Source: a phage. From it: a stretch of 38,683 nt of DNA. Below, one piece after another: positions 2,338 to 36,452 of the stretch. Both the position numbers and the translations under genes were made by a program. The notes under the pieces were generated by a model. The model was not told the DNA's origin, searched no databases, and worked only from the letters and a program-made list of their open reading frames with translations. Each line of letters begins with the position of its first letter. Within the stretch, counting starts at the first letter, position 1. The stretch lies in assembly GCA_033178465.1 (NCBI GenBank), contig GCA_033178465.1_4726.3, one strand, 5' to 3'.

Positions 2338-2361
2338 CCGTCTCGAGTTGTCTCGAGACGG
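2338..2361 (-). terminator. hairpin CCGTCTCGAG-TTGT-CTCGAGACGG, candidate terminator for the 117-aa gene
   Basis: Perfect 10-bp inverted repeat with 4-nt loop, 30 nt downstream of the minus-strand stop at 2391; followed on the minus strand by a T-rich stretch (TAAGTTTATACTGTTTTGCTTATTCATTTG). Confidence 0.4.
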
Positions 2362-3328: not shown

Positions 3329-3876
3329 CTTGTAATCCTTAATTTACCTGAATGAATTATCGTTGATGGGTCCACGACGCGACCGTATTTCGCGTTACGT
3401 AATACACGATGCCCAAAGAAGTCAGCGGTTTCCAAAACAACCGTATAACAACCCAGCTGATGTTGATGTCCCCAAAACCGTTCAATGGGAATCCAGCAGG
3501 GCGACATGCCTTTGTGTCGCCAATCCGTAACACAGCCGAATTCAGCAAACTGTTCAGTAAACCACTCGTCAATGTCGGTATCCGTAAAGAGAAACACGTG
3601 GTTTTTAACCAGATAAGCGAACCCAGGATAAAAAAGCTGAGGGTCATCTGGGTCACGTAGATAAACACGAAGTTTGTCGAGCGTACCCTCGATAACGATC
3701 GTATCGGGTAATCCTGGCGGCGTGAACCGAAGTTGGAAGTTATCCTCGTTTGCCGAGGCGTTAACCAAATACCCCAATTGAAGGGGCCGATGCAATTCGA
3801 AAAGGTTAAACGTTAATGCATATTCGATATACTCTAATCCTATATTCATGTCTGACCTATGTGGTATGGACGGCAT
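3325..3876 (-). CDS. hypothetical protein (183 aa)
   Basis: ORF with ATG at 3874-3876 and GGAAGG upstream; first gene of a minus-strand block, facing a divergent intergenic region. Confidence 0.6.
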   Translation of the reverse strand: MPSIPHRSDMNIGLEYIEYALTFNLFELHRPLQLGYLVNASANEDNFQLRFTPPGLPDTIVIEGTLDKLRVYLRDPDDPQLFYPGFAYLVKNHVFLFTDTDIDEWFTEQFAEFGCVTDWRHKGMSPCWIPIERFWGHQHQLGCYTVVLETADFFGHRVLRNAKYGRVVDPSTIIHSGKLRITR

Positions 3877-5378: not shown

Positions 5379-5407
5379 CCTCCTCTGGGAATGGAACCCA
5401 GAGGAGG
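5379..5407. terminator. bidirectional hairpin CCTCCTCTGGG-AATGGAA-CCCAGAGGAGG between convergent genes
   Basis: Perfect 11-bp stem with 7-nt loop, placed between the plus-strand gene ending at 5226 and the minus-strand gene ending at 5420. Confidence 0.5.
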
Positions 5408-5728: not shown

Positions 5729-5775
5729 TGCGTACCTCAACGTTATACGTCGTTTGTATTATAATACGCTATCGT

Positions 5776-5799
5776 CTCCCCGCCTGTATTAACGGGGAG
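5776..5799 (-). terminator. intercistronic hairpin CTCCCCG-(10 nt)-CGGGGAG downstream of the terminase gene
   Basis: Perfect 7-bp stem, 10-nt loop, 15 nt past the terminase stop (5814); followed by the 12-bp palindrome GTATTATAATAC (5756..5767). No clear U-tract. Confidence 0.3.
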
Positions 5800-5813
5800 T
5801 CTGCAAACTACTC

Positions 5814-8045
5814 TTAGAAAAAACCGCCCGGACGGTATTGACCCATCGTCATCCACGCATTACGAGAAATATTCCGTTCATTCGAAGAGCGGCTTATTTG
5901 ACGATAAGTATTCGCTCGTTCCTCCCTTGCTTTCGTGATCATCGCATCAATAGAAACAGCCGCTGAATCTTCCCCACGTATTTTTCCTTTATACGTAAGA
6001 AGCTCTGCCTCCAATCGATCCAAGATAAGGCCGTTGGTTTCGGTCTTAAGCAACTCATAGATTTCAGCAACACGTTGACGAAGCTTCGCCTGCTGTTGGT
6101 TAAGATACGCTTCATACGGATCGATTTCACCCGTCACAGATGCCGGTAAACGACTCATGACTTTAAGTGGATCGATACCGTAATGGATCTGTTTCTTAGC
6201 ACGCTTGATGAACCACATCGCTAACATCCATGCGAACGTCATGTCATCGTGCATTCCATCCTGGTGGTCGACACGCCCATCTTTGATAACCAATCCAAGG
6301 ATCTCGGAACACAACATCTTATCACGTAATTGCCCGCGGGTTTCTACAATACCTTCCATCAAGATGTCGGAATACAACTCCATACGTTTGCGTGCATCCG
6401 TTGTGAAACCCAAATGCCGTTTACGTTGAGCGTACCAACTTTCATCACGCATGCTCAATGGTAATTTCAGGTCTTCGAACATCGCTGGATTATCAGCATG
6501 CCTGTCTACAATCGTGTTGTATACGCGTTTGAACACGTCGATGCCCGCTTGCCGCAAGAACTCTTCAATTGCGTCTAACAGCATGATTGCACTGCTTTTA
6601 CGTTCAGGAATCAACGTAACGTTCTTAAAACGCATCATGAAGTTGGCCATCCAACGAGCAAAAGAAAGCAGGCTCAGTTTATTAAAACGTCCCGTCGCGA
6701 CAACTTCTGCTGTTTCCACATCCACCATCACCAAACCGATAGCGTCACGACCGATCGCGTCACTGGTGTCTAAACCAGCAACCACCTTATTGTTCTGCAT
6801 GTATGTCTCGATTTGACCTCGAGGTATATACCAGTTAATGCAGTAGCCTTCAGGTGAGATCTCGATATGGTCGATTTCACGTTGTCCTGCCATGATCATC
6901 TCAACCATCTCAGCGGTTAACGGGCTTTCTGCTGAACCGTTGGTCCAAATGTTCATGTAGTCACGGTCTTTCTGAAGCTTATCACCTTCCGTTTCGTTCA
7001 TGGTTTTTGCTAACCATTCATCACTGAAGCCCAACTGAGCATGGTTCCATTGTGCCCCGATCCTGACGGTCGCTTTGCTGAGCTCGCACGGTACGTTGTT
7101 CAATACCGTCTGATGGAGATGCTTTTCATTACGGCAGTCAAAGAAACTTTCAGAGAACGGCGCTGAACGCATGAAAACTTCATAAGCCCATTTGCCTTCG
7201 CGTTTATCCAACTCACCTGCCGTTGTCGTATAGATGATACTTGTCAGGTCGCCGTTGCTTAATGCTTCATCGCGTGCCGCACCCATCGCACCGATACCAG
7301 CAGGAACAATGATTTCGATGTATTTCGTAAACGCGGTTTCGTCGCTATGGAATAGCGGGGTTGTTAGACCACGACCGATGTTCGTTGCTTGTTTCTTATC
7401 CGAACGTGGAATCTTTACCGACAGCTTGTTCTTGAAACGCGTGTAGGTCACGTTCTCTTTGTTCGATGAATCTCGACTATCCAGTGTCCAGAGATACGCA
7501 GGCAACAGATCGCGTATACTACGCACGTCTTCTACCGTTTTCGTACGGGCATCACCGTCTTTTGTTAACTGAATAACCTCGGTGTTTCGACTACGAACAT
7601 AGGTTAGATAACAAAACAATCCTAACATGGTCATGGATTTACCGGTCTGACGTATCTGTATCTGATACCAGTTCGTTCGGGTAAATATCCCCCAGAGCAT
7701 CGGAATGTTACCGCGGTTAGCACGGAATGAAATTTTGTTATCACCCGCTTTAGCCGGAACGCGCATCACTTCACGGAAGAAGTACCATGGATTAAGATAG
7801 CATTCCGCACTGATCATCTGAATCTGTTCTGACGTCAAATTCGGTGCGTGGGGATCAACACCAATCAATCTTGGGTTTAATAACGCCATGAAAAACGCAG
7901 AGTTCCGGACACCGAATTCACGACGATACAAGATCGCTAAATCACGCCAACTTGTGTTTGTTGTTTCCCAGTGTGGAACAGCCTGAGGAAAATAATCCCA
8001 ATCTTCCTCAAACAAGATGATTTTCTTCGGATCGACAATCGACAT
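5814..8045 (-). CDS. terL: terminase large subunit (743 aa)
   Basis: P-loop-like IRQTGKSMT near residue 125 (ATPase Walker A) and Asp-rich nuclease-type motifs in the C-terminal half (GLDTSDAIGRDAIGLVMVD, HQDGMHDDMTFAWMLA); size typical of TerL. ATG at 8043-8045 with GGAGGAG upstream. Confidence 0.75.
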   Translation of the reverse strand: MSIVDPKKIILFEEDWDYFPQAVPHWETTNTSWRDLAILYRREFGVRNSAFFMALLNPRLIGVDPHAPNLTSEQIQMISAECYLNPWYFFREVMRVPAKAGDNKISFRANRGNIPMLWGIFTRTNWYQIQIRQTGKSMTMLGLFCYLTYVRSRNTEVIQLTKDGDARTKTVEDVRSIRDLLPAYLWTLDSRDSSNKENVTYTRFKNKLSVKIPRSDKKQATNIGRGLTTPLFHSDETAFTKYIEIIVPAGIGAMGAARDEALSNGDLTSIIYTTTAGELDKREGKWAYEVFMRSAPFSESFFDCRNEKHLHQTVLNNVPCELSKATVRIGAQWNHAQLGFSDEWLAKTMNETEGDKLQKDRDYMNIWTNGSAESPLTAEMVEMIMAGQREIDHIEISPEGYCINWYIPRGQIETYMQNNKVVAGLDTSDAIGRDAIGLVMVDVETAEVVATGRFNKLSLLSFARWMANFMMRFKNVTLIPERKSSAIMLLDAIEEFLRQAGIDVFKRVYNTIVDRHADNPAMFEDLKLPLSMRDESWYAQRKRHLGFTTDARKRMELYSDILMEGIVETRGQLRDKMLCSEILGLVIKDGRVDHQDGMHDDMTFAWMLAMWFIKRAKKQIHYGIDPLKVMSRLPASVTGEIDPYEAYLNQQQAKLRQRVAEIYELLKTETNGLILDRLEAELLTYKGKIRGEDSAAVSIDAMITKAREERANTYRQISRSSNERNISRNAWMTMGQYRPGGFF

Positions 8046-8056
8046 ATAAACTCCTC

Positions 8057-8085
8057 CGATGGAGGGTGCCGAGCACCCTCCATCG
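8057..8085 (-). promoter_or_regulatory. 13-bp perfect-stem hairpin immediately 5' of the terminase Shine-Dalgarno
   Basis: CGATGGAGGGTGC-CGA-GCACCCTCCATCG. On the minus-strand mRNA the order is stop(UAA)-10 nt-hairpin-GAGGAGUUUAU-AUG(terL). Confidence 0.45.
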
Positions 8086-8095
8086 TTGTATTACT

Positions 8096-9829
8096 TTATG
8101 CGACTTTACTAATAACGACTGCTGTGATACCGAGATGTAGGTCGACGCCATTCTGTACTTTAATCCAGCGGATATACAGGTTAGCGTTATCCTGTCCCGT
8201 ACCACCTGGGACGTTATTGTTCCTATTCCATTGCGAGATTTCGAAACGTTTCTGCACGTTAGGACCAACCATGATTTCAAAGTGAGTCGGTTCTGGCGCT
8301 TTCGATTCCGTCTTCTCAAGATAGAGCGGATGCGTCGGGTAGTAAAGTTGATTCAACCATTCACCCAGATCTGAGTGTTTGTTCGTCAAGTCAACATACG
8401 CGTTACCAGCAACATCGTAAGTAAACAACGCTTTCGTGTTACGGCCGTACACATCCGTTGTCGTCGGCGTTGTTTGCGAGCTGAACGTTACTGTCCAGTA
8501 ATCACCGGATGTTGCCGAACCTGCTTGCAGTAACGTCATTCGAATAGTCTGCGTATGACGTACGCGTTTGTAAACAGTAGGATCGACTTCATCTAACCAG
8601 ATGTTGTACGCAAATTCCTGAGGTTGTCCGTATTTCTTCGGATTAAACTCAGGGCTGTTCAGCGCCAATTGTACTTTATCGGTTACGTTGTAGTATCGTT
8701 CACGGTCAACGTTATACAACCAGAATACTAACTCGTATCCCACCGCATCAGATACCCATTGTGGATAGCAGAACAGTTTAACACTGTAAGCCCCTTTCGC
8801 TTCTTTAGAGACAACGGTATACGGGACACTAATATGTTTCACTGCTCCAGGTAACGCGTAGGACGTGTCCTCATCGTCGTCCAGGTAGTAGTGTAACGCC
8901 AGCGGGTGTTTGCTGTTGATGACCTGGGACGTGAAGACGTTAAGGCCGTCCAACACAACCTTGTTACCAGTAACCGGCCAATGTTTAATGGAACCATCAC
9001 TGTAGGTGACTTCAGCCTGAAGGTCGACGGAGTCCAGGTTGACGTTGATTGGTAACTCAAGCAGTTTGGTATCGCTGCTGCTCAGCCATGTTGATCTCAG
9101 TCGTACCCCGTCTTCCAGAATATATTTAATACCCTGGTCTGGGGTGCGTACATAGTCAGTGATACGAACAATCATACGTTTCATTGATAGCGGCTGTGGC
9201 CCATCACCATAACCTACTACCATCACCTGCTCAAAATCTTCGACAGGCTTGATGCAGTAACCTTCGCGGGGTGCCCAGATGGCTTTATTCGTTCCGTCTT
9301 TGTATGCGATAAGCTGACACGGAATGAAATCGCTGATCTTATTCCCGCTGTTGTCATACATCGCACTGATGATTTCGCCTTTAGCGCTGATGTCGGAACC
9401 GCGGAACACTGCGATACGTCGAATATCCGAGCCATGCAGATGGAAACGACGATCGATGTTCATTGTAGCAGGGATCGTGTTCGTATTAATCAATACACGC
9501 CATGTATCGTACGACCACGTCGGGTCAATACCTTCAAAGGTTGTCGTCCCATCGCCCTGACCATCGAACGGAGCAGACAGCTGACCGATAAGTTTAAGGG
9601 TACTTAGTTTAGTGCGATCGTCTACGGCGATAACACGGTACACCGCATTCGTATCCCAGTCTTCAACTTTATCGTCCACGTTGGGAACGTAAAGTTTCCA
9701 GTCTTCTTCAACGCCATTATAGATCTCTTTATACGCATAGGTGGTATAGCGTCTGTCGAGATCCTGAATAGCGAGTTTATCCGGATGCTGTTGTGCGTAA
9801 AGCACCGGATTGGTAATCTCTCTTCCCAT
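8096..9829 (-). CDS. hypothetical protein, probable virion structural protein (577 aa)
   Basis: The track start is GTG at 9835; the ATG at 9827-9829 (MGREITNP...) follows GGTGAG and sits 2 nt after the upstream TGA stop. Large protein in a late/structural-looking block; no motif recognised. Confidence 0.55.
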   Translation of the reverse strand: MGREITNPVLYAQQHPDKLAIQDLDRRYTTYAYKEIYNGVEEDWKLYVPNVDDKVEDWDTNAVYRVIAVDDRTKLSTLKLIGQLSAPFDGQGDGTTTFEGIDPTWSYDTWRVLINTNTIPATMNIDRRFHLHGSDIRRIAVFRGSDISAKGEIISAMYDNSGNKISDFIPCQLIAYKDGTNKAIWAPREGYCIKPVEDFEQVMVVGYGDGPQPLSMKRMIVRITDYVRTPDQGIKYILEDGVRLRSTWLSSSDTKLLELPINVNLDSVDLQAEVTYSDGSIKHWPVTGNKVVLDGLNVFTSQVINSKHPLALHYYLDDDEDTSYALPGAVKHISVPYTVVSKEAKGAYSVKLFCYPQWVSDAVGYELVFWLYNVDRERYYNVTDKVQLALNSPEFNPKKYGQPQEFAYNIWLDEVDPTVYKRVRHTQTIRMTLLQAGSATSGDYWTVTFSSQTTPTTTDVYGRNTKALFTYDVAGNAYVDLTNKHSDLGEWLNQLYYPTHPLYLEKTESKAPEPTHFEIMVGPNVQKRFEISQWNRNNNVPGGTGQDNANLYIRWIKVQNGVDLHLGITAVVISKVA

Positions 9830-9831
9830 TA

Positions 9832-12426
9832 TCACTCACCTTTGATTGTGTAAAACTTCGTGAAGTCCACGCGATCTTTCAAGAACTCACGACTGACGCG
9901 TTCTAAGAACCGCAGTTGTTTAACCGTAACTTCGAGCGGCGTCCAACTATCGTGTGGATGAATAGAGACCATCCGCCAATCGTAATTACGTAACGCAGGA
10001 TCGTAGTCATAGAACCATTTATACGGCTCCATGAAATCCATCAGTTTAACGTCCTGCATATCAGGATCGGGATCGATAACACCGTTGATAAGATCGTACG
10101 TTACAGCCATCAACGTTGGGCTGATAAGCTGGTATTTGTTTTCAATCGTTACCGGCGTATCGTACTTCACACGAGGGAAATACAAGGACATATAGTCTTC
10201 AACGCGTTTATCGGTTTCAAGACTTTTGTCGCGTAGATAATACGTGTCTGTGTTCACGAGACCACGGATAGGGGCAATAACATGGTAAATCGCATAAGGC
10301 ACCCCATCGTTGACTTTGATGTCGGCAGGGTATTGCGTGTCCTCTGCGGTAACCACTTCGCTACGATCGTAAATGCGTCCACCAACCACAATACGAACAA
10401 CATGGTCGTCACGAACATTGAACACGTCGTCGTAAGAAAGCTGATTATGCATCGTCCAACCGGTATCGTAAACGGTTTCACCGGTTAAGTCCGTACGTGG
10501 AAAACCAGTACATCTCACGGTAACCGTGTGCGTGTTCCCTTCACTGAAATACCGTTTCGCGTTGATCACGATCGTTGGCCATTTTACGATGTAATCGATA
10601 TCGCGCACCAAGCTGTAGCTTTTGGTTGCTCGCTCGTCACCTAACCATACTTCGATTTGACCAGGTTCGAAAGGCAGCGGATATTCAACATCAATACCCG
10701 TCGTAACATCCAACCATACGGTGTGGTTACGATGTTGTATTGTGGTCTTATACGCTAAGAAGTAGGTGTCGAACAATACTAAACCGGTTTGCTTTCTTCC
10801 ATCCAGCGACCATTTTATTACCCCGTTCTCTTCCGTTACCACAGAAGCATCGTCGGTAACATCCTTCCAGGTGTTCGCAACAGGTTGTCCGTTACGAAGG
10901 TTTACGCTATAACAGCGGTAACTCGCCCATTCACGGATTGGGACGTCGGCAACACCCATCACGTAATCAAGCGTTCTCCCACCAACACCCGATCGACCCT
11001 CAACATAGGACGTGGTTTCATATTGCGGATAAAAATGTCGGCCTGCCGGATGTTGCGTGATACCCAATAATAGACCGTCACTGTCGTACTCAAAGAACGT
11101 CGCATTTGCACGCAAACCCCATGGTACTTCAGCGGTAGGGGTACCCATATCGTCAGTAACGCGTTGTGGACTATCTGCAACCAGTTTTGCCATCGCGTTA
11201 TACCCGTAAGCGGAGGTCACCATGTCGATCGTGATATTGCTTTCCTTATTACGCATGATGCGCGTATAATCACTGGCTTCAAGGGTACGTGCAAAGAACT
11301 CAGGTATATTCGCGTTCTGTTCTAACATTGCACCGACGATGACGTCGTCTGGAAGTTTATACAATTCGTGGATGCGGTTATGTTCGAAGGTTAACTGCGT
11401 TTTCAAACCACTATCACGGACAACCACTTCCAGGGTTAAATCACGAAGCGATTCTGCTCCATCAACCCGTTCAACGAAGTAGCTGACATAATCAACAGGA
11501 ATCCCGTAATCACGATGCGTGAGCATGCGGATACTATTTTCCTGGTTGGTATGGTAATAACGCCCTTTTCCATTAGGGCCTTTCACGTAGATATCAACAT
11601 CATCACGATACCGGATTTTAGTATCAGCTTCATCTTTCGGCGGATGAATAAGATACTTCACTTTTTTGTCAAGATCGCTGTTGTACGTTTTAAGATCTTC
11701 TACACGGAAGCTGTACCGATGAACAACTGTGCCATCATAGATGACCTGAATGCTATCGCCGATCTTAAAACTTGACGGTGGGATGTCTTCAACCGCTTCA
11801 CCATTGATACTGCAGTGCGTCCAACCGATTCCGGTTTCCTGGATCTTTTTACGCCAGGCGTATAGCTGACGCTGCCACTGTAGAACCTGTGTCGAGCTGG
11901 TTACAATCCCCCCAAGGACATGCACTTCACGCCCCGTCGGTTTCGTGTATGACGGATAGCCTTCTGCGAAGTCAGCGTTGAGATAAGTGCGCCAGTAATA
12001 ATCACCAACGCCAAGATCGGCGATATTCGGTTGGTCGAGCACACAGACCAGCATCGTTTCGTTTTCCAGATTACCCGTCCACGTTAATGTCAGCGGGAAT
12101 TCTTTACCGTCCTCGGTGTAGATGTTGTAATACGATCCCTTTACTTCACAGAACTTGCTGAGTTCTCGCCACCACAACCGCCCAGCCCCGACATTAAAAT
12201 CCTCTCCCATGTGTCGTCCAATAACAAACACGTGGAACGTATTCGTATCGTCAGGAAGATTGAATGTACGATGCCAAGCCGTAAAGTTTTTTACTGCGCC
12301 GGTCTTTCCGGTAATACGACGCATCTTGATACGATGCTGGTTGTCCATTAATGGACGGCAGTTCACATTCAGCGCAGCATGATTTATCAAGTATTGCGCT
12401 GTAGGATTAGAAGCGTTCAACACCAC
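9832..12426 (-). CDS. hypothetical protein, probable virion structural protein (864 aa)
   Basis: Long ORF. The start is a GTG at 12424-12426 preceded by GGAGG at 6-nt spacing; the first in-frame ATG (12348) lacks an SD. Overlaps the upstream gene by 20 nt. Confidence 0.55.
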   Translation of the reverse strand: MVLNASNPTAQYLINHAALNVNCRPLMDNQHRIKMRRITGKTGAVKNFTAWHRTFNLPDDTNTFHVFVIGRHMGEDFNVGAGRLWWRELSKFCEVKGSYYNIYTEDGKEFPLTLTWTGNLENETMLVCVLDQPNIADLGVGDYYWRTYLNADFAEGYPSYTKPTGREVHVLGGIVTSSTQVLQWQRQLYAWRKKIQETGIGWTHCSINGEAVEDIPPSSFKIGDSIQVIYDGTVVHRYSFRVEDLKTYNSDLDKKVKYLIHPPKDEADTKIRYRDDVDIYVKGPNGKGRYYHTNQENSIRMLTHRDYGIPVDYVSYFVERVDGAESLRDLTLEVVVRDSGLKTQLTFEHNRIHELYKLPDDVIVGAMLEQNANIPEFFARTLEASDYTRIMRNKESNITIDMVTSAYGYNAMAKLVADSPQRVTDDMGTPTAEVPWGLRANATFFEYDSDGLLLGITQHPAGRHFYPQYETTSYVEGRSGVGGRTLDYVMGVADVPIREWASYRCYSVNLRNGQPVANTWKDVTDDASVVTEENGVIKWSLDGRKQTGLVLFDTYFLAYKTTIQHRNHTVWLDVTTGIDVEYPLPFEPGQIEVWLGDERATKSYSLVRDIDYIVKWPTIVINAKRYFSEGNTHTVTVRCTGFPRTDLTGETVYDTGWTMHNQLSYDDVFNVRDDHVVRIVVGGRIYDRSEVVTAEDTQYPADIKVNDGVPYAIYHVIAPIRGLVNTDTYYLRDKSLETDKRVEDYMSLYFPRVKYDTPVTIENKYQLISPTLMAVTYDLINGVIDPDPDMQDVKLMDFMEPYKWFYDYDPALRNYDWRMVSIHPHDSWTPLEVTVKQLRFLERVSREFLKDRVDFTKFYTIKGE

Positions 12427-13354
12427 GGCATGCCTCCAGGAGGTATTTCATGTTGGCTTGGAAATCATTGACGTCACGCGCCATACGACGCTGATCCGCC
12501 ATGAGACGAGCCAACACGGTATCACGGTAACCACGATCGTGGTCGGCAGCAGAGCATAAAAGAATAAATGTTGGTGGATGCTCTAAAGCAATCCCAGCAA
12601 CTTCTTTACTATAACCCCCAACCCAGCTGTAAGCGGTGATTTCAAACAACAACGCTTGGGTTAACGTGTTCAAACGGGGACTAATATTACTTTCTTTTAA
12701 TGCTGTTACGAAAGCTGCCATGTTAGGGATATAACCCAGGTTTTCGGTTACGATACCGATGCTTGCAAAATCATAACGAAGCGTTGTCTGGATGGTGCGC
12801 ACCATAGTTAGTCTTTCATTATTTGTAAGGCTATCTTTAAACAAGCAAAGATAATACCATGCTGTTATGATGGCAACATCACGACGTTGTTGAAGGTCCA
12901 GCCCTAAACGCTGTGTGATTTGTCCGCTAATCCAATCACAAAAGACACGCATCGGGATAGGGCCAAGACGTTCAAAAGGGCGTGTGCCCAAGGATTCCCA
13001 TCCTACCTGAAGATACGCACGTGATTGAAGAAAGTTATATTCACGTTCGTTAACAACGGTAGTACGCGATCCTGGGCGTGAAGTATCTGTTGGGGTGCGC
13101 GCGTAAGCGCGTTGATCGATAACAACGCGCTGTCCGTCCATCACTGTTTTAATGACCAACGGATGACCAAAAGAAGGTATATCGTCCAACGTATTTTTGT
13201 TGCCGATGACTTCGAGAACGGGAGTGTTTACGCCACTTTCTTCACCGGGTGCACTTAACAATCCGCCGACGTAAGCAACTTCGATAGCGGTTCGGATACG
13301 GTCAATGCCTTTTAGTTTTGTTCCAACAGTTGTGTCGTAAGGAGAGATGAACAT
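12407..13354 (-). CDS. hypothetical protein (315 aa)
   Basis: ORF with ATG at 13352-13354 and AAGGA about 8 nt upstream; first gene of the minus-strand block leaving the divergent region. Confidence 0.6.
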   Translation of the reverse strand: MFISPYDTTVGTKLKGIDRIRTAIEVAYVGGLLSAPGEESGVNTPVLEVIGNKNTLDDIPSFGHPLVIKTVMDGQRVVIDQRAYARTPTDTSRPGSRTTVVNEREYNFLQSRAYLQVGWESLGTRPFERLGPIPMRVFCDWISGQITQRLGLDLQQRRDVAIITAWYYLCLFKDSLTNNERLTMVRTIQTTLRYDFASIGIVTENLGYIPNMAAFVTALKESNISPRLNTLTQALLFEITAYSWVGGYSKEVAGIALEHPPTFILLCSAADHDRGYRDTVLARLMADQRRMARDVNDFQANMKYLLEACRGVERF

Positions 13355-19022: not shown

Positions 19023-19124
19023 CTTTTAAATTCCTACTTAACAATAAAGTTCATATACGGCGTATGTATCCGTAGAATAATGGGTTCTGGTAAGATCTTA
19101 CATCAAAATGACGGCATAAAAAGT

Positions 19125-19152
19125 ACCTCCTTACCCACATGGGTAAGGAGGT
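19125..19152 (-). terminator. intrinsic terminator ACCTCCTTACCC-ACAT-GGGTAAGGAGGT
   Basis: Perfect 12-bp stem with 4-nt loop; on the minus strand it is followed by ACUUUUUAUGCC; lies within a 280-bp non-coding gap between the 269-aa and 266-aa genes. Confidence 0.55.
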
Positions 19153-23469: not shown

Positions 23470-23495
23470 GAGCAGGGGCATGAAGCCCCCTGCTC
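23470..23495 (-). terminator. intrinsic terminator GAGCAGGGG-(8 nt)-CCCCTGCTC after the RNAP beta-like gene
   Basis: Perfect 9-bp stem starting 1 nt after the TAA stop at 23496..23498; T-rich sequence on both sides (minus strand: GUUUAUUUCGCU). Confidence 0.55.
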
Positions 23496-27845: not shown

Positions 27846-29492
27846 TTAGGCTCCACGAGGTCCCGTTAAGTTGCGTAGTAGGAACGCAACCGTATCGTAA
27901 CCAATATCGATGTTGAATTTATTTTTACCGCTTACCCAGAAAGCTCGCTTCTTGTGCGAGTTGGTAATTTCGTCAATGGCTTCCATGGAATAAAGAACGT
28001 TAACCGAGACTGTATCACCATCAAAGTCCCCACCAAGTCCGGCGAGGTATGGCGCAGGGACAATAGTCGTTTCTACGAACGAAGCATTAGGTAACCAGTC
28101 GGGGTATTCCCATGCGATAAATCGTTCATCCGTCATTGGTTCCCAGTTACTATCCAGTTCGGTTTTCGGTTTTGCTGCAACGGTCGTACGCGCGTAACAG
28201 GTTAACGGAATGACGGATTGCATACCCGATACCGGATAACGTGTTACCATCGCAGCCAGGTTATTCCAGTATTTATATCCTGCGATATAGATAAGCTCGG
28301 TGTACGTGATGGGGTGAACATCCGCACCAGGTTTGTTAAGCATCTCCGGGGGTAATTCACTCATACCACGGAATAACCGAAACGAATCGTTGTTCACATA
28401 GACAAGACAAAGATATCGTCCATTAACCATGATAGGTTCGTTACGCACACCGGGATCGCTTAAGGTGTTCAATAAACGTTCTATCCCGTCCCATGTTGTA
28501 AAGTCATCGATGGTGTCTGGATCAAGCGTGACGCGCTCACGTTCCATCGTTTCGGTATCAATAAGTTCAACTTCTGTAACATCACGGACAAATATTTCCT
28601 GCAAAATACCCGTACGTAACGCATGTTGCGTTACGGGGAGAGCAGCTTTACTCATCTGGTATAACCCTAACTGAACCGCGGTACAGGAAGGCTGGTTAGG
28701 CGACCCTAATACCTCCGTTGTGGGGTTAATTGCCGAAATAACGTTACGGGTTGAGTTCCAAACACGACGTGAGCCGAACTTCCCTTGGAAGATCCCTTTC
28801 TTACCTTGGAACATATCCAACAACAAAGCGTAGATATCGTTAAATGTTCTCTGTAAGCTCCAGCGTTGACCGTCGTAAACGGGATCGGAATAATCTTTTA
28901 ATCCATCAGGGACGGTGTTGGAAATTGCCAGGAAACGACGATACAACTCTGTGATTTCTTGCTCGCTTTCATACCCGCCTTCTTTTACTTCTATTTCACG
29001 TAAGCCCGCAGGTAAAACCAGTAAGTGACGGGTCATCGCTTTGAACATGTTCTCTTCGACAACTTTAATTCGTAGCTCTCGTTGAGCTGAACCCGTTGAA
29101 ACGAACTTGATATCAGCGACGTGTTGTGCAAAGAACCCGTATCCTGTTTGTCCTGTTAACGCATCGGACGCAACGAAGTCGCGTTGTTCAGGATCCCAAC
29201 GCGCGTACGCCTTTCCTGACATGATATCGCCATAGAGGTGTTTTAATCGAATGAGGCGGTCGTAAATGACAGGATGCAGGATTTCAACCTTGCATTCAAT
29301 CACCGCAAATCGACGGTCTCGATCTTCACTACCCGCACTACCAAAGATGGTGTAAGAATAGAAACCATCATCGTGGAAATTACCGGTGCTTGGGTCACGA
29401 ATGCTCATGCTCGTGATCTTGGGGAGAAAACGTAACTGCTGTTTATCGAGGTGTAAAATACTAATATTAAACGGCTCTCTGACTTTAGCCAT
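27846..29492 (-). CDS. multisubunit RNA polymerase beta-prime N-terminal fragment (about 548 aa)
   Basis: Contains LAGLGGDFDGDTVSVNVLY (codons at about 28014..28028), matching the beta-prime Mg-binding NADFDGD loop; the N-terminus DGFYSYTIFGS...RRFAVIECKVEILHPV parallels beta-prime GLFCARIFGP...ERMGHIELASPTAHIWF, and GKFGSRRVWNSTRNVISA parallels GKRVDYSGRSVI. The track start (29534) has no SD; the ATG at 29490-29492 (MAKVREPF...) is preceded by AGAGGAG at 7-nt spacing. Confidence 0.75.
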   Translation of the reverse strand: MAKVREPFNISILHLDKQQLRFLPKITSMSIRDPSTGNFHDDGFYSYTIFGSAGSEDRDRRFAVIECKVEILHPVIYDRLIRLKHLYGDIMSGKAYARWDPEQRDFVASDALTGQTGYGFFAQHVADIKFVSTGSAQRELRIKVVEENMFKAMTRHLLVLPAGLREIEVKEGGYESEQEITELYRRFLAISNTVPDGLKDYSDPVYDGQRWSLQRTFNDIYALLLDMFQGKKGIFQGKFGSRRVWNSTRNVISAINPTTEVLGSPNQPSCTAVQLGLYQMSKAALPVTQHALRTGILQEIFVRDVTEVELIDTETMERERVTLDPDTIDDFTTWDGIERLLNTLSDPGVRNEPIMVNGRYLCLVYVNNDSFRLFRGMSELPPEMLNKPGADVHPITYTELIYIAGYKYWNNLAAMVTRYPVSGMQSVIPLTCYARTTVAAKPKTELDSNWEPMTDERFIAWEYPDWLPNASFVETTIVPAPYLAGLGGDFDGDTVSVNVLYSMEAIDEITNSHKKRAFWVSGKNKFNIDIGYDTVAFLLRNLTGPRGA

Positions 29493-29737
29493 GGAGACAC
29501 TCCTCTTTACCACCACCGGCTGCGGCGGTATCATCTGAACACACGAGAGACGTAATGGGTGATGGCGTCACCCATCGCTTCCTTGCCTGATGCCAGGAAG
29601 TTATTAGGTTACGTACCTGCCTGATTTTATCAAGCGGGCGATGTGTGAAGTTACGCTTCAACATTATCAATGCCGAAGGTAAGCTTCGTGCATCACGTTC
29701 CAACGTAACATGGGAACGTATCGAACTGGAGGTATAC

Positions 29738-36403: not shown

Positions 36404-36414
36404 TCATTAGTTAA

Positions 36415-36433
36415 GGGCGGGAGATTCCCGCCC
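36415..36433 (+). terminator. intercistronic hairpin GGGCGGGA-GAT-TCCCGCCC (attenuator-type)
   Basis: Perfect 8-bp GC stem 12 nt after the TAG stop, followed by TCTTCTTG and then the SD (GAGGAA) and ATG of the next gene. Confidence 0.4.
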
Positions 36434-36452
36434 TCTTCTTGAGGAATGTTAC

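Follow-up and report, generated by a model that had tools for sequence, protein, structure and literature searches.

A terminator-like hairpin at the boundary between a virion structural gene block and terL in a Goslar-like chimallivirus

The window, by which we mean the whole stretch of 38,683 nucleotides analysed here, was compared with Escherichia phage vB_EcoM_Goslar using a 2.5-kb query around the hairpin described below, which matched over its full length with 96.5% DNA identity. The source phage is a close relative of Goslar, that is, a Goslar-like chimallivirus, and Goslar is a nucleus-forming jumbo phage of E. coli that belongs to the phiKZ-like Chimalliviridae. The genes around the hairpin are carried on the minus strand. 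The terL protein was 100% identical in amino acid sequence to Goslar gp222 and 37.5% identical to phiKZ gp25. The gene located immediately upstream, which ends with a TAA stop codon at positions 8098-8096, is the final gene of the structural block gp219-gp220-gp221, the members of which are homologues of phiKZ gp28, gp27, and gp26, respectively. Among these, gp220 contains DUF7193 and corresponds to the baseplate spoke protein gp27 of phiKZ. The gene order is identical in phiKZ (gp27-gp26-gp25, the last of which is terL), and terL is a late gene, as are the structural genes. A Pfam search of the TerL and gp221 proteins identified no domains. The intergenic gap between gp221 and terL is 50 nt long and is occupied by the features listed in Table 1.

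Table 1. Positions in the window of the genes and elements at the gp221-terL junction, and of other hairpins discussed in the text
Feature	Position	Strand	Remarks
terL, terminase large subunit	5814..8045	-	743 aa; start codon ATG at 8045-8043
Upstream gene, virion structural protein	8096..9835	-	579 aa; homologue of Goslar gp221 and phiKZ gp26
A/U-rich single-stranded spacer AGUAAUACAA	8086..8095	-	10 nt; between the gp221 stop codon and the hairpin
5' arm of the RNA hairpin, CGAUGGAGGGUGC	8073..8085	-	includes SD-like GGAGGG
Loop	8070..8072	-	3 nt; UCG in the window, CCG or UCA in relatives
3' arm of the RNA hairpin, GCACCCUCCAUCG	8057..8069	-	includes anti-SD-like CCCUCC
terL ribosome-binding region	8046..8056	-	SD GAGGAG (8056-8051) and spacer UUUAU (8050-8046)
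Sister hairpin, 12 bp, intergenic	19125..19152	-	followed by ACTTTTTATGCCGT, a canonical phiKZ-type terminator tail
Sister hairpin, 11 bp, CCUCCUCUGGG/CCCAGAGGAGG	5379..5407	both	between the convergent genes gp224 and gp223
Sister hairpin after the RNA polymerase beta-subunit gene	23470..23495	-	immediately after the gene; putative terminator in the Goslar record
Sister hairpin, 9 bp	36414..36434	+	between the tail-fibre gene gp204 and gp203
Sister hairpin, 10 bp, intergenic	2338..2361	-	followed by TAAGTTTATACTGT

A perfect inverted repeat of 13 bp with a 3-nt loop spans positions 8057-8085, and its plus-strand arms at 8057-8069 (CGATGGAGGGTGC) and 8073-8085 (GCACCCTCCATCG) are fully complementary. 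The RNA of the transcribed strand reads UAA-AGUAAUACAA-CGAUGGAGGGUGC-UCG-GCACCCUCCAUCG-GAGGAG-UUUAU-AUG, with the hairpin starting 10 nt past the TAA of gp221 and ending directly at the Shine-Dalgarno (SD) sequence of terL, 11 nt before the AUG. The last G of the 3' arm doubles as the first G of the SD core GGAGG. The stem contains 9 G-C pairs, and the 29-mer folded with a free energy of -24.7 kcal/mol (z = -7.0), a stability that was reached by none of 200 shuffled sequences; in a context of 81 nt, the z-score was -5.6. Among the perfect stems in the window, it is the longest; in 40 mononucleotide shuffles of the window, the best stem was at most 11 bp. The sequence, the folding, and the shuffles thus confirmed the original prediction of a 13-bp perfect stem that ends right before the SD of terL. 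The hairpin had also been called exceptionally stable, which is accurate within the window, where it is the strongest stem, but not for the genome as a whole, since it ranked only about fifth in Goslar, where other intergenic hairpins reached -26 to -33.5 kcal/mol. The arm sequence was unique in the Goslar genome, and a dispersed repeat was thereby ruled out. A search of the window against Rfam 15 yielded nothing at the gathering thresholds, and only chance-level matches were obtained around the hairpin (E = 0.37 or worse).

To describe the variation at the junction among close relatives, we compared 9 Goslar-like genomes that were 90% to 97% identical over 8.2 kb: the window, Goslar, 2 IMG/VR contigs, and 5 metagenome contigs. 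The background variation amounted to 43% to 49% of the third codon positions and 27% of the positions in the neighboring intergenic gap at 5741-5813. In the 50-nt gap upstream of terL, only 3 positions were variable, 2 of which were located in the loop (UCG, CCG, or UCA) and 1 beside the stop codon. Thus, 2 of the 3 loop positions varied and none of the 26 stem positions, the stem being invariant in the 8 genomes that have kept the hairpin. The probability of finding 2 of 3 variable sites in the 3 loop sites was about 0.007, given about 61 sites free to vary. Since the local diversity was patchy, this internal comparison of loop and stem was judged to be the safest statistic. A similar pattern was observed in the hairpin at 5379-5407, in which all 7 loop positions but none of the 22 stem positions varied among the nine genomes. 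The ribosome-binding region of terL did not vary in any of the 9 genomes, and this also holds for the deletion variant described below. The pattern of variation indicates that the hairpin is under selection. No compensatory change in the stem was seen among the nine genomes of the Goslar clade, where an invariant stem would equally fit a sequence-specific or a DNA-level constraint. Searches of IMG/VR and metagenomes for intermediate relatives recovered only genomes with a TerL identity of at least 99% or very distant ones.

One of the genomes has lost the hairpin. In contig NODE-25 of ERZ1643250 (238 kb, about 29x coverage), the site reads TAATACAACGATGGAGGAGTTTATATG (genotype CGATGGAGGAGTTTATATG), which corresponds to a clean 24-nt deletion between 2 direct repeats of GGAGG by which exactly the hairpin is gone (L021 2985-3003, corresponding to 8043-8085 in the window). 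The SD, the spacer, and the ATG were retained, while the CCUCC motif was lost along with the hairpin. The deletion was the sole indel in 8.2 kb of sequence with 97.4% identity, and it is unlikely to be an assembly error. Deletions between short direct repeats flanking a palindrome are a classical outcome of replication slippage. Judging from this genome, the hairpin seems to be dispensable for terL expression and phage survival, and its loss from one natural genome that has kept the SD and the AUG fits a modulatory rather than an essential role. The natural hairpin-deletion genome also offers a direct way to measure the effect of such a hairpin on the downstream gene in a nucleus-forming phage.

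For the more distant comparison, we selected 15 diverse chimalliviruses that have kept the order of a gp26-like gene followed by terL: phiKZ, PhiPA3, LucasX, Ea35-70, Proteus phage 10, PhiEaH1, Totoro, BONAISHI, FBKp24, RSL2, Machina, SPLA5c, JM-2012, Miami, and RisingSun. All 15 contained, upstream of terL, a hairpin of -14 to -32 kcal/mol that started 1 to 18 nt past the stop codon at the end of the gp26-like gene. The same arrangement was found in 5 further relatives, so that the conservation upstream of terL that had been named as a check on the original prediction was found in 20 of 20 other chimalliviruses with this gene order, although the lineages are not independent samples. The phages differed in the length of the gap. 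In those with long gaps (phiKZ, 139 nt; PhiPA3, 79 nt; Totoro, 143 nt; JM-2012, 93 nt; Miami, 83 nt), the junction hairpin carried a tail of the TTTAT type and there was space for a separate terL promoter. In 5 of the 15 phages, which have short gaps (Machina, 42 nt; SPLA5c, 44 nt; RisingSun, 50 nt; PhiEaH1, 51 nt; BONAISHI, 51 nt), the hairpin ended 12 to 18 nt before the ATG, directly at the SD, as in the window.

The homologous junction also displayed the covariation expected of a conserved structured RNA element, in the form of 2 compensatory pairs in one clade: among Machina, SPLA5c, SNUABM_8, and phiEaH2, 2 of the 10 pairs had changed on both sides with the pairing kept (U-A to A-U and C-G to U-A). 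In Wellington, and in Phobos together with Derbicus, unrelated hairpins occupied the same junction. These comparisons indicate that the structure at the junction has persisted while its sequence was replaced. The loops of the junction hairpins in the relatives were of the UUCG or GNRA type on the gene strand. A canonical copy with a full tail was present at the homologous gp26/terL junction in both phiKZ and PhiPA3, and a terminator is annotated at this junction in the record for Klebsiella phage Miami. That a hairpin separates the gp26-like gene from terL throughout the family suggests selection for keeping the transcription of the terminase distinct from that of the baseplate and structural operon.

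We listed all simple hairpins in the whole Goslar genome, for which 247 coding sequences have been annotated. On the minus strand, 30 hairpins with a free energy of -15 kcal/mol or lower were counted in the non-coding 7% of the genome, as compared to 8 in the coding 93%, which corresponds to an approximately 50-fold enrichment of stable hairpins in intergenic DNA. For 38 hairpins between tandem genes, the median distance from the stop codon to the hairpin was 12 nt, as compared to 10 nt at terL, and the median distance from the hairpin to the next start codon was 51.5 nt, as compared to 11 nt at terL; 8 of the 38 ended no more than 20 nt before the next start codon. A (T)TAT(G) motif, typically within TTATGCYGT, was found 0 to 6 nt past the stem in 24 of 39 strong hairpins. 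According to a hand count, the TTAT tail was present in 4 of 10 compact hairpins and in 19 of 28 spaced ones, and the trend for compact hairpins to lack the tail more often was too weak to be used. Of the four-nucleotide loops of the UUCG or GNRA type, all 10 were on the gene strand and none on the other, which shows that the Goslar hairpins act as RNA on the sense strand. The Goslar record contains 18 annotated putative terminators. The terL hairpin is absent among them, presumably because it has no U-tract.

Several members of this set shared individual features with the terL hairpin. The compact layout recurred at 36414-36434, where the stop codon is followed by 10 nt, the 9-bp hairpin, 18 nt that include GAGGA, and an ATG. 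The hairpin at positions 170953-170976 in Goslar combined a canonical tail with a reversed arm polarity, as in the terL hairpin. The hairpin at 5379-5407 was equally stable on either strand and is probably a bidirectional terminator.

Among the closest known systems are the intrinsic terminators of phiKZ, whose motif BCCYCCCCHWWDGGGRRGGBYTTATKYYGT was defined by mapping transcript 3' ends with ONT-cappable-seq (Putzeys et al. 2024, PMC10914365). Related motifs were found at the 132 mapped termination sites of phage 201phi2-1, of which eight tested sites terminate in vivo (PMC11512511). The terL hairpin resembles these terminators in being a GC-rich stem-loop of the CCUCC/GGAGG type, located a few nucleotides past a stop codon on the transcribed gene strand of a chimallivirus, and a TTATGYYGT tail like theirs is present on about 24 Goslar hairpins. 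It differs from them in that no TTATKYYGT is located within about 2 nt of the stem, where the tail instead reads GAGGAGTTTATATGTCGA. The TTAT is displaced by the SD and starts 7 nt past the stem, with the TATG 10 nt past it, so that the partial likeness to the terminator tail (UUUAUAUGUCG) lies inside the ribosome-binding region of terL. Moreover, the G-rich arm comes first, with GGAGGG in the 5' arm and CCCUCC in the 3' arm, rather than a C-rich 5' arm followed by a G-rich 3' arm. Because GAGGAG rather than TTAT adjoins the stem, the polarity of the arms is reversed, and the transcript ends are putative, we did not class the terL hairpin as a member of the canonical phiKZ terminator motif. 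We regard it as real and functional, but as an ordinary representative, hitherto without annotation, of the terminator-like hairpins known from chimalliviruses, in a compact form without an adjacent tail.

Bacterial Rho-independent terminators also have a stable GC-rich hairpin just past the stop codon, but in the terL hairpin, the stem does not run directly into a U-tract on the gene strand, and the enzyme expected here is the non-canonical phage non-virion RNA polymerase (nvRNAP) in the phage nucleus rather than the host polymerase. On the minus strand, a terminator scan picked up only a 5-bp sub-hairpin, CCTCCATCGGAGG, followed by AGTTTATATG, and by the rules for bacterial RNA polymerase, the terL hairpin would be a poor intrinsic terminator. 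As for promoters, an analysis of k-mers enriched in the intergenic DNA of Goslar recovered the early-promoter core of phiKZ, TATATTAC, along with TTTATGCC, and Goslar and phiKZ therefore share regulatory signals. Given these shared signals (the core TATATTAC and the tail TTATGYYGT), the transcript maps of phiKZ can guide the annotation of Goslar. The early-promoter core was absent from the gap between gp221 and terL. The late-promoter core of phiKZ is TATG, with transcription starting at the G, and the lone TATG in the gap overlaps the ATG of terL; transcripts starting there would be without a start codon and cannot serve terL. A promoter for terL within the gap was thus rejected. In contrast to the long-gap arrangement in phiKZ, the gap is too short for a separate promoter and transcription must pass through the hairpin.

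We consider it rather probable, by analogy with these systems, that the hairpin serves as a leaky terminator, as a stabilizer of the 3' end, or as both, and that it closes the upstream structural operon and lowers the level of terL mRNA. As a sense-strand RNA stem-loop, it would then delimit the late virion-structural transcription unit gp219-gp220-gp221 on its 3' side. In the first step of the mechanism that we propose, the phage nvRNAP would transcribe through gp221 in the ribosome-free phage nucleus, and since there are no ribosomes there, the very stable hairpin would fold as soon as it is made. In the second step, the hairpin would halt a fraction of the polymerases within the next approximately 10 nt (GAGGAGUUUAU, before the AUG), or, alternatively or in addition, it would stop 3'-to-5' exonucleases on the cytoplasmic mRNA; in either case, transcripts that end at the hairpin would accumulate. 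In the third step, terL would be translated from read-through transcripts by means of its own unpaired SD. The block would have to be leaky, since the SD and not TTAT adjoins the stem and since the hairpin and the SD leave no space for an intervening promoter. The net effect would be a level of terL message below that of the structural genes. The folding premise of the first step and the read-through argument of the third are drawn from the data, and we infer steps 2 and 3 and the outcome. The contact between the hairpin and the ribosome-binding site of terL would result from the compression of the gap to 50 nt rather than from a dedicated role as a translational switch. The original prediction had proposed a control of terminase expression relative to the upstream structural gene. 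Attenuation or processing is indeed the most plausible role, but one that is not specific to terL, given the genome-wide set of hairpins. We regard it as decidedly unlikely that the tail-less hairpins abutting the SD at the gp26/terL junction of every compact chimallivirus represent a distinct functional subclass of hairpin-only attenuators, which would fix the ratio of structural to terminase products and insulate the ribosome-binding site of terL. If they did, such hairpins would be recognized by the non-canonical nvRNAP or else by an RNA-binding factor of the nucleus or of mRNA export, and would act in phages whose transcription and translation take place in physically separate compartments.

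The alternative closest to this reading is that transcription simply runs from gp221 into terL and that the hairpin acts purely in mRNA processing or stability, without termination. In the cytoplasm, it would form a barrier to 3' exonucleases and stabilize the upstream structural segment, or, after an endonuclease cut in the A/U-rich single-stranded spacer that precedes it, could protect the 5' end of the terL message. Intercistronic stem-loops that set the differential stability of mRNA segments are well established in bacteria, as exemplified by the REP elements in malEFG and the puf operon of Rhodobacter. Like these, the terL hairpin forms a stable structure that separates an upstream cistron with high expression from a downstream cistron that is needed less, and by analogy, a differential stability of the segments would be expected. 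It is unlike the REP elements in being unique in the genome and not a dispersed repeat. The lack of a U-tract at the stem on the gene strand and the lack of a TTAT tail on 6 of the 10 compact Goslar hairpins also agree with a pure stability element. Furthermore, phiKZ encodes a degradosome inhibitor (PMC4980113), which implies that RNA decay matters in this phage family. We nevertheless consider this explanation unlikely, since other hairpins of the same set, as well as the junction hairpins of phiKZ and PhiPA3, bear the full terminator tail, and since the phiKZ terminator set was defined from primary 3' ends (PMC10914365). A processing site for RNase III was rejected. The hairpin is intercistronic and located in a phage late operon, as are the RNase III sites between the late genes of T7, but those substrates are duplexes of about 20 bp or more, usually with internal loops, whereas the terL hairpin has a perfect stem of only 13 bp and a 3-nt loop, and its predicted flanking extension was no more stable than in shuffled sequences (z = -0.2). 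A translational device is very unlikely. As such a device, the hairpin could serve as an insulator or a standby structure by which the SD stays free, could sequester the adjacent anti-SD-like CCCUCC, or could stop ribosomes that have completed gp221 from moving on and re-initiating at terL; the translation of terL would thereby be uncoupled from that of the upstream gene. The hairpin ends exactly at the SD, in the compact relatives it is always located 12 to 18 nt before the AUG, and its 3' arm could otherwise pair with the SD (CCUCC-AUC-GGAGG, -5.7 kcal/mol), which the large hairpin precludes. Transcription and translation are uncoupled in these phages, such that the mRNAs fold before meeting ribosomes. 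However, the SD is located outside the stem, with which it shares a single G, and neither the SD nor the start codon is paired in the stem, as would be the case in an operator that sequesters the SD. The predicted accessibility of the SD and the AUG, calculated from partition functions in contexts of 160 to 240 nt, was nearly equal with and without the hairpin. The deletion variant loses the CCUCC motif together with the hairpin while its SD and AUG are identical, and hairpins of the same kind are usually far from start codons, so proximity to a ribosome-binding site is not their defining feature. The suggestion in the original prediction that the hairpin modulates ribosome access thus found no support. 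The SD-sequestering mini-hairpin is not a credible switch either, as its -5.7 kcal/mol compares with -24.7 kcal/mol for the hairpin and the two are mutually exclusive. When folded with a context of at least 100 nt, a helix was predicted that pairs the last approximately 35 nt of gp221 with the start region of terL, has the hairpin at its tip, and would occlude the start codon. This long-range helix was rejected as a device for translational coupling: without the hairpin, its z-score was -0.2 and 83 of 200 shuffles were as good, and it also displayed no compensatory change. The invariant synonymous sites at the end of gp221 were not unusual, as runs of 8 to 18 invariant third positions occurred elsewhere in the gene.

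Since the palindrome is the same on both strands, it could terminate antisense transcription on the plus strand, where its tail is T-rich. A consensus scan rated the plus strand as terminator-like (TTGTATTACT, with 5 T in 8), and a sequence similar to the TTATKYYGT tail, TTTATGCGAC, is located 9 nt downstream on that strand; among the terminators mapped in six Pseudomonas phages, including phiKZ, 9% were antisense to genes (PMC10914365). We consider this highly improbable, since no plus-strand gene lies upstream for more than 2.8 kb and the closest such gene, gp224, already has a strong hairpin of its own (5379-5407). The orientation of the tetraloops, which are of the UUCG or GNRA type on the gene strand in the junction hairpins of the relatives and number 10 versus 0 across Goslar, also argues against it. 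Finally, the palindrome could act at the level of DNA, as a protein-binding site or a cruciform, for example a packaging (pac) signal beside terL. The hairpin does adjoin terL, and its stem is conserved in sequence without covariation inside the Goslar clade; we know of no described packaging initiation site for the chimalliviruses. This explanation is barely credible, given that the junction sequences are unrelated between lineages that have retained the structure with compensatory changes, and that the hairpin is one of approximately 40 to 60 similar ones in Goslar that bear strand-specific RNA tetraloops. In addition, its sequence occurs only once in the genome, and one natural genome is without it.

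On its own, the terL hairpin is of little consequence: it places one more unannotated terminator-like element on the map of Goslar and accounts for a conspicuous palindrome.

Several other observations were made on the hairpins in these genomes. Identical 24-nt intergenic hairpins (GAGCCTGTCCTTCGGGGCAGGCTT), each followed by TTATGC, were present in Goslar at 3506-3529 and 180586-180609 and represent a duplicated terminator module. In 3 other gaps in Goslar (117670-117688, 152277-152300, and 166927-166953), the tail (TTATGCCG or TATGTCG) supplies the ATG at which the next gene is annotated to start, only 2 to 4 nt past the stem. In these 3 gaps, the G-rich 3' arm (GGGAGGG) is the sole SD of the next gene, and translation would thus need a melted terminator hairpin. 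The hairpin in the region 19103-19152 on the minus strand of the window has the 5' arm ACCUCCUUA, which is identical to the 3' tail of the E. coli 16S rRNA, the anti-SD, while a perfect SD is formed by its 3' arm, UAAGGAGGU. Past the hairpin, the sequence continues with ACUUUUU-AUG CCG UCA UUU UGA, in which a mini-ORF of 4 codons lies within the canonical tail TTATGCCGT. Across the Goslar genome, and for example at 19103-19124 in the window, the TTATGCYGT tail includes TATG, the core of the phiKZ late promoter, and judging from this overlap a terminator and a late promoter may be combined in one module.

In the first 20,000 nucleotides of the window, matches to sigma-70-like promoters were depleted (12 versus 33.5 +/- 5.8 in shuffles) and terminator-like sites were enriched (38 versus 18.8 +/- 4.2), which is consistent with transcription that is independent of the host RNA polymerase. 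A small palindrome, ATGCCTCCAGGAGGTAT (CCUCC/GGAGG), was located at 12430-12446, just upstream of the start of gp220 and within the 3' end of the overlapping gene gp219. Lastly, the window was found to lack, at 28019-28027, an insertion of approximately 2.05 kb that splits the gene for the RNA polymerase beta-subunit in Goslar (L002 28048-30100) and that consists of an annotated group I intron and gp206, an ORF with weak similarity to ORF179 of phiKZ. The corresponding ORF in the window (29534..27846, 562 aa) is unbroken and represents an intron-less allele in a genome that is otherwise 96.7% identical to Goslar.
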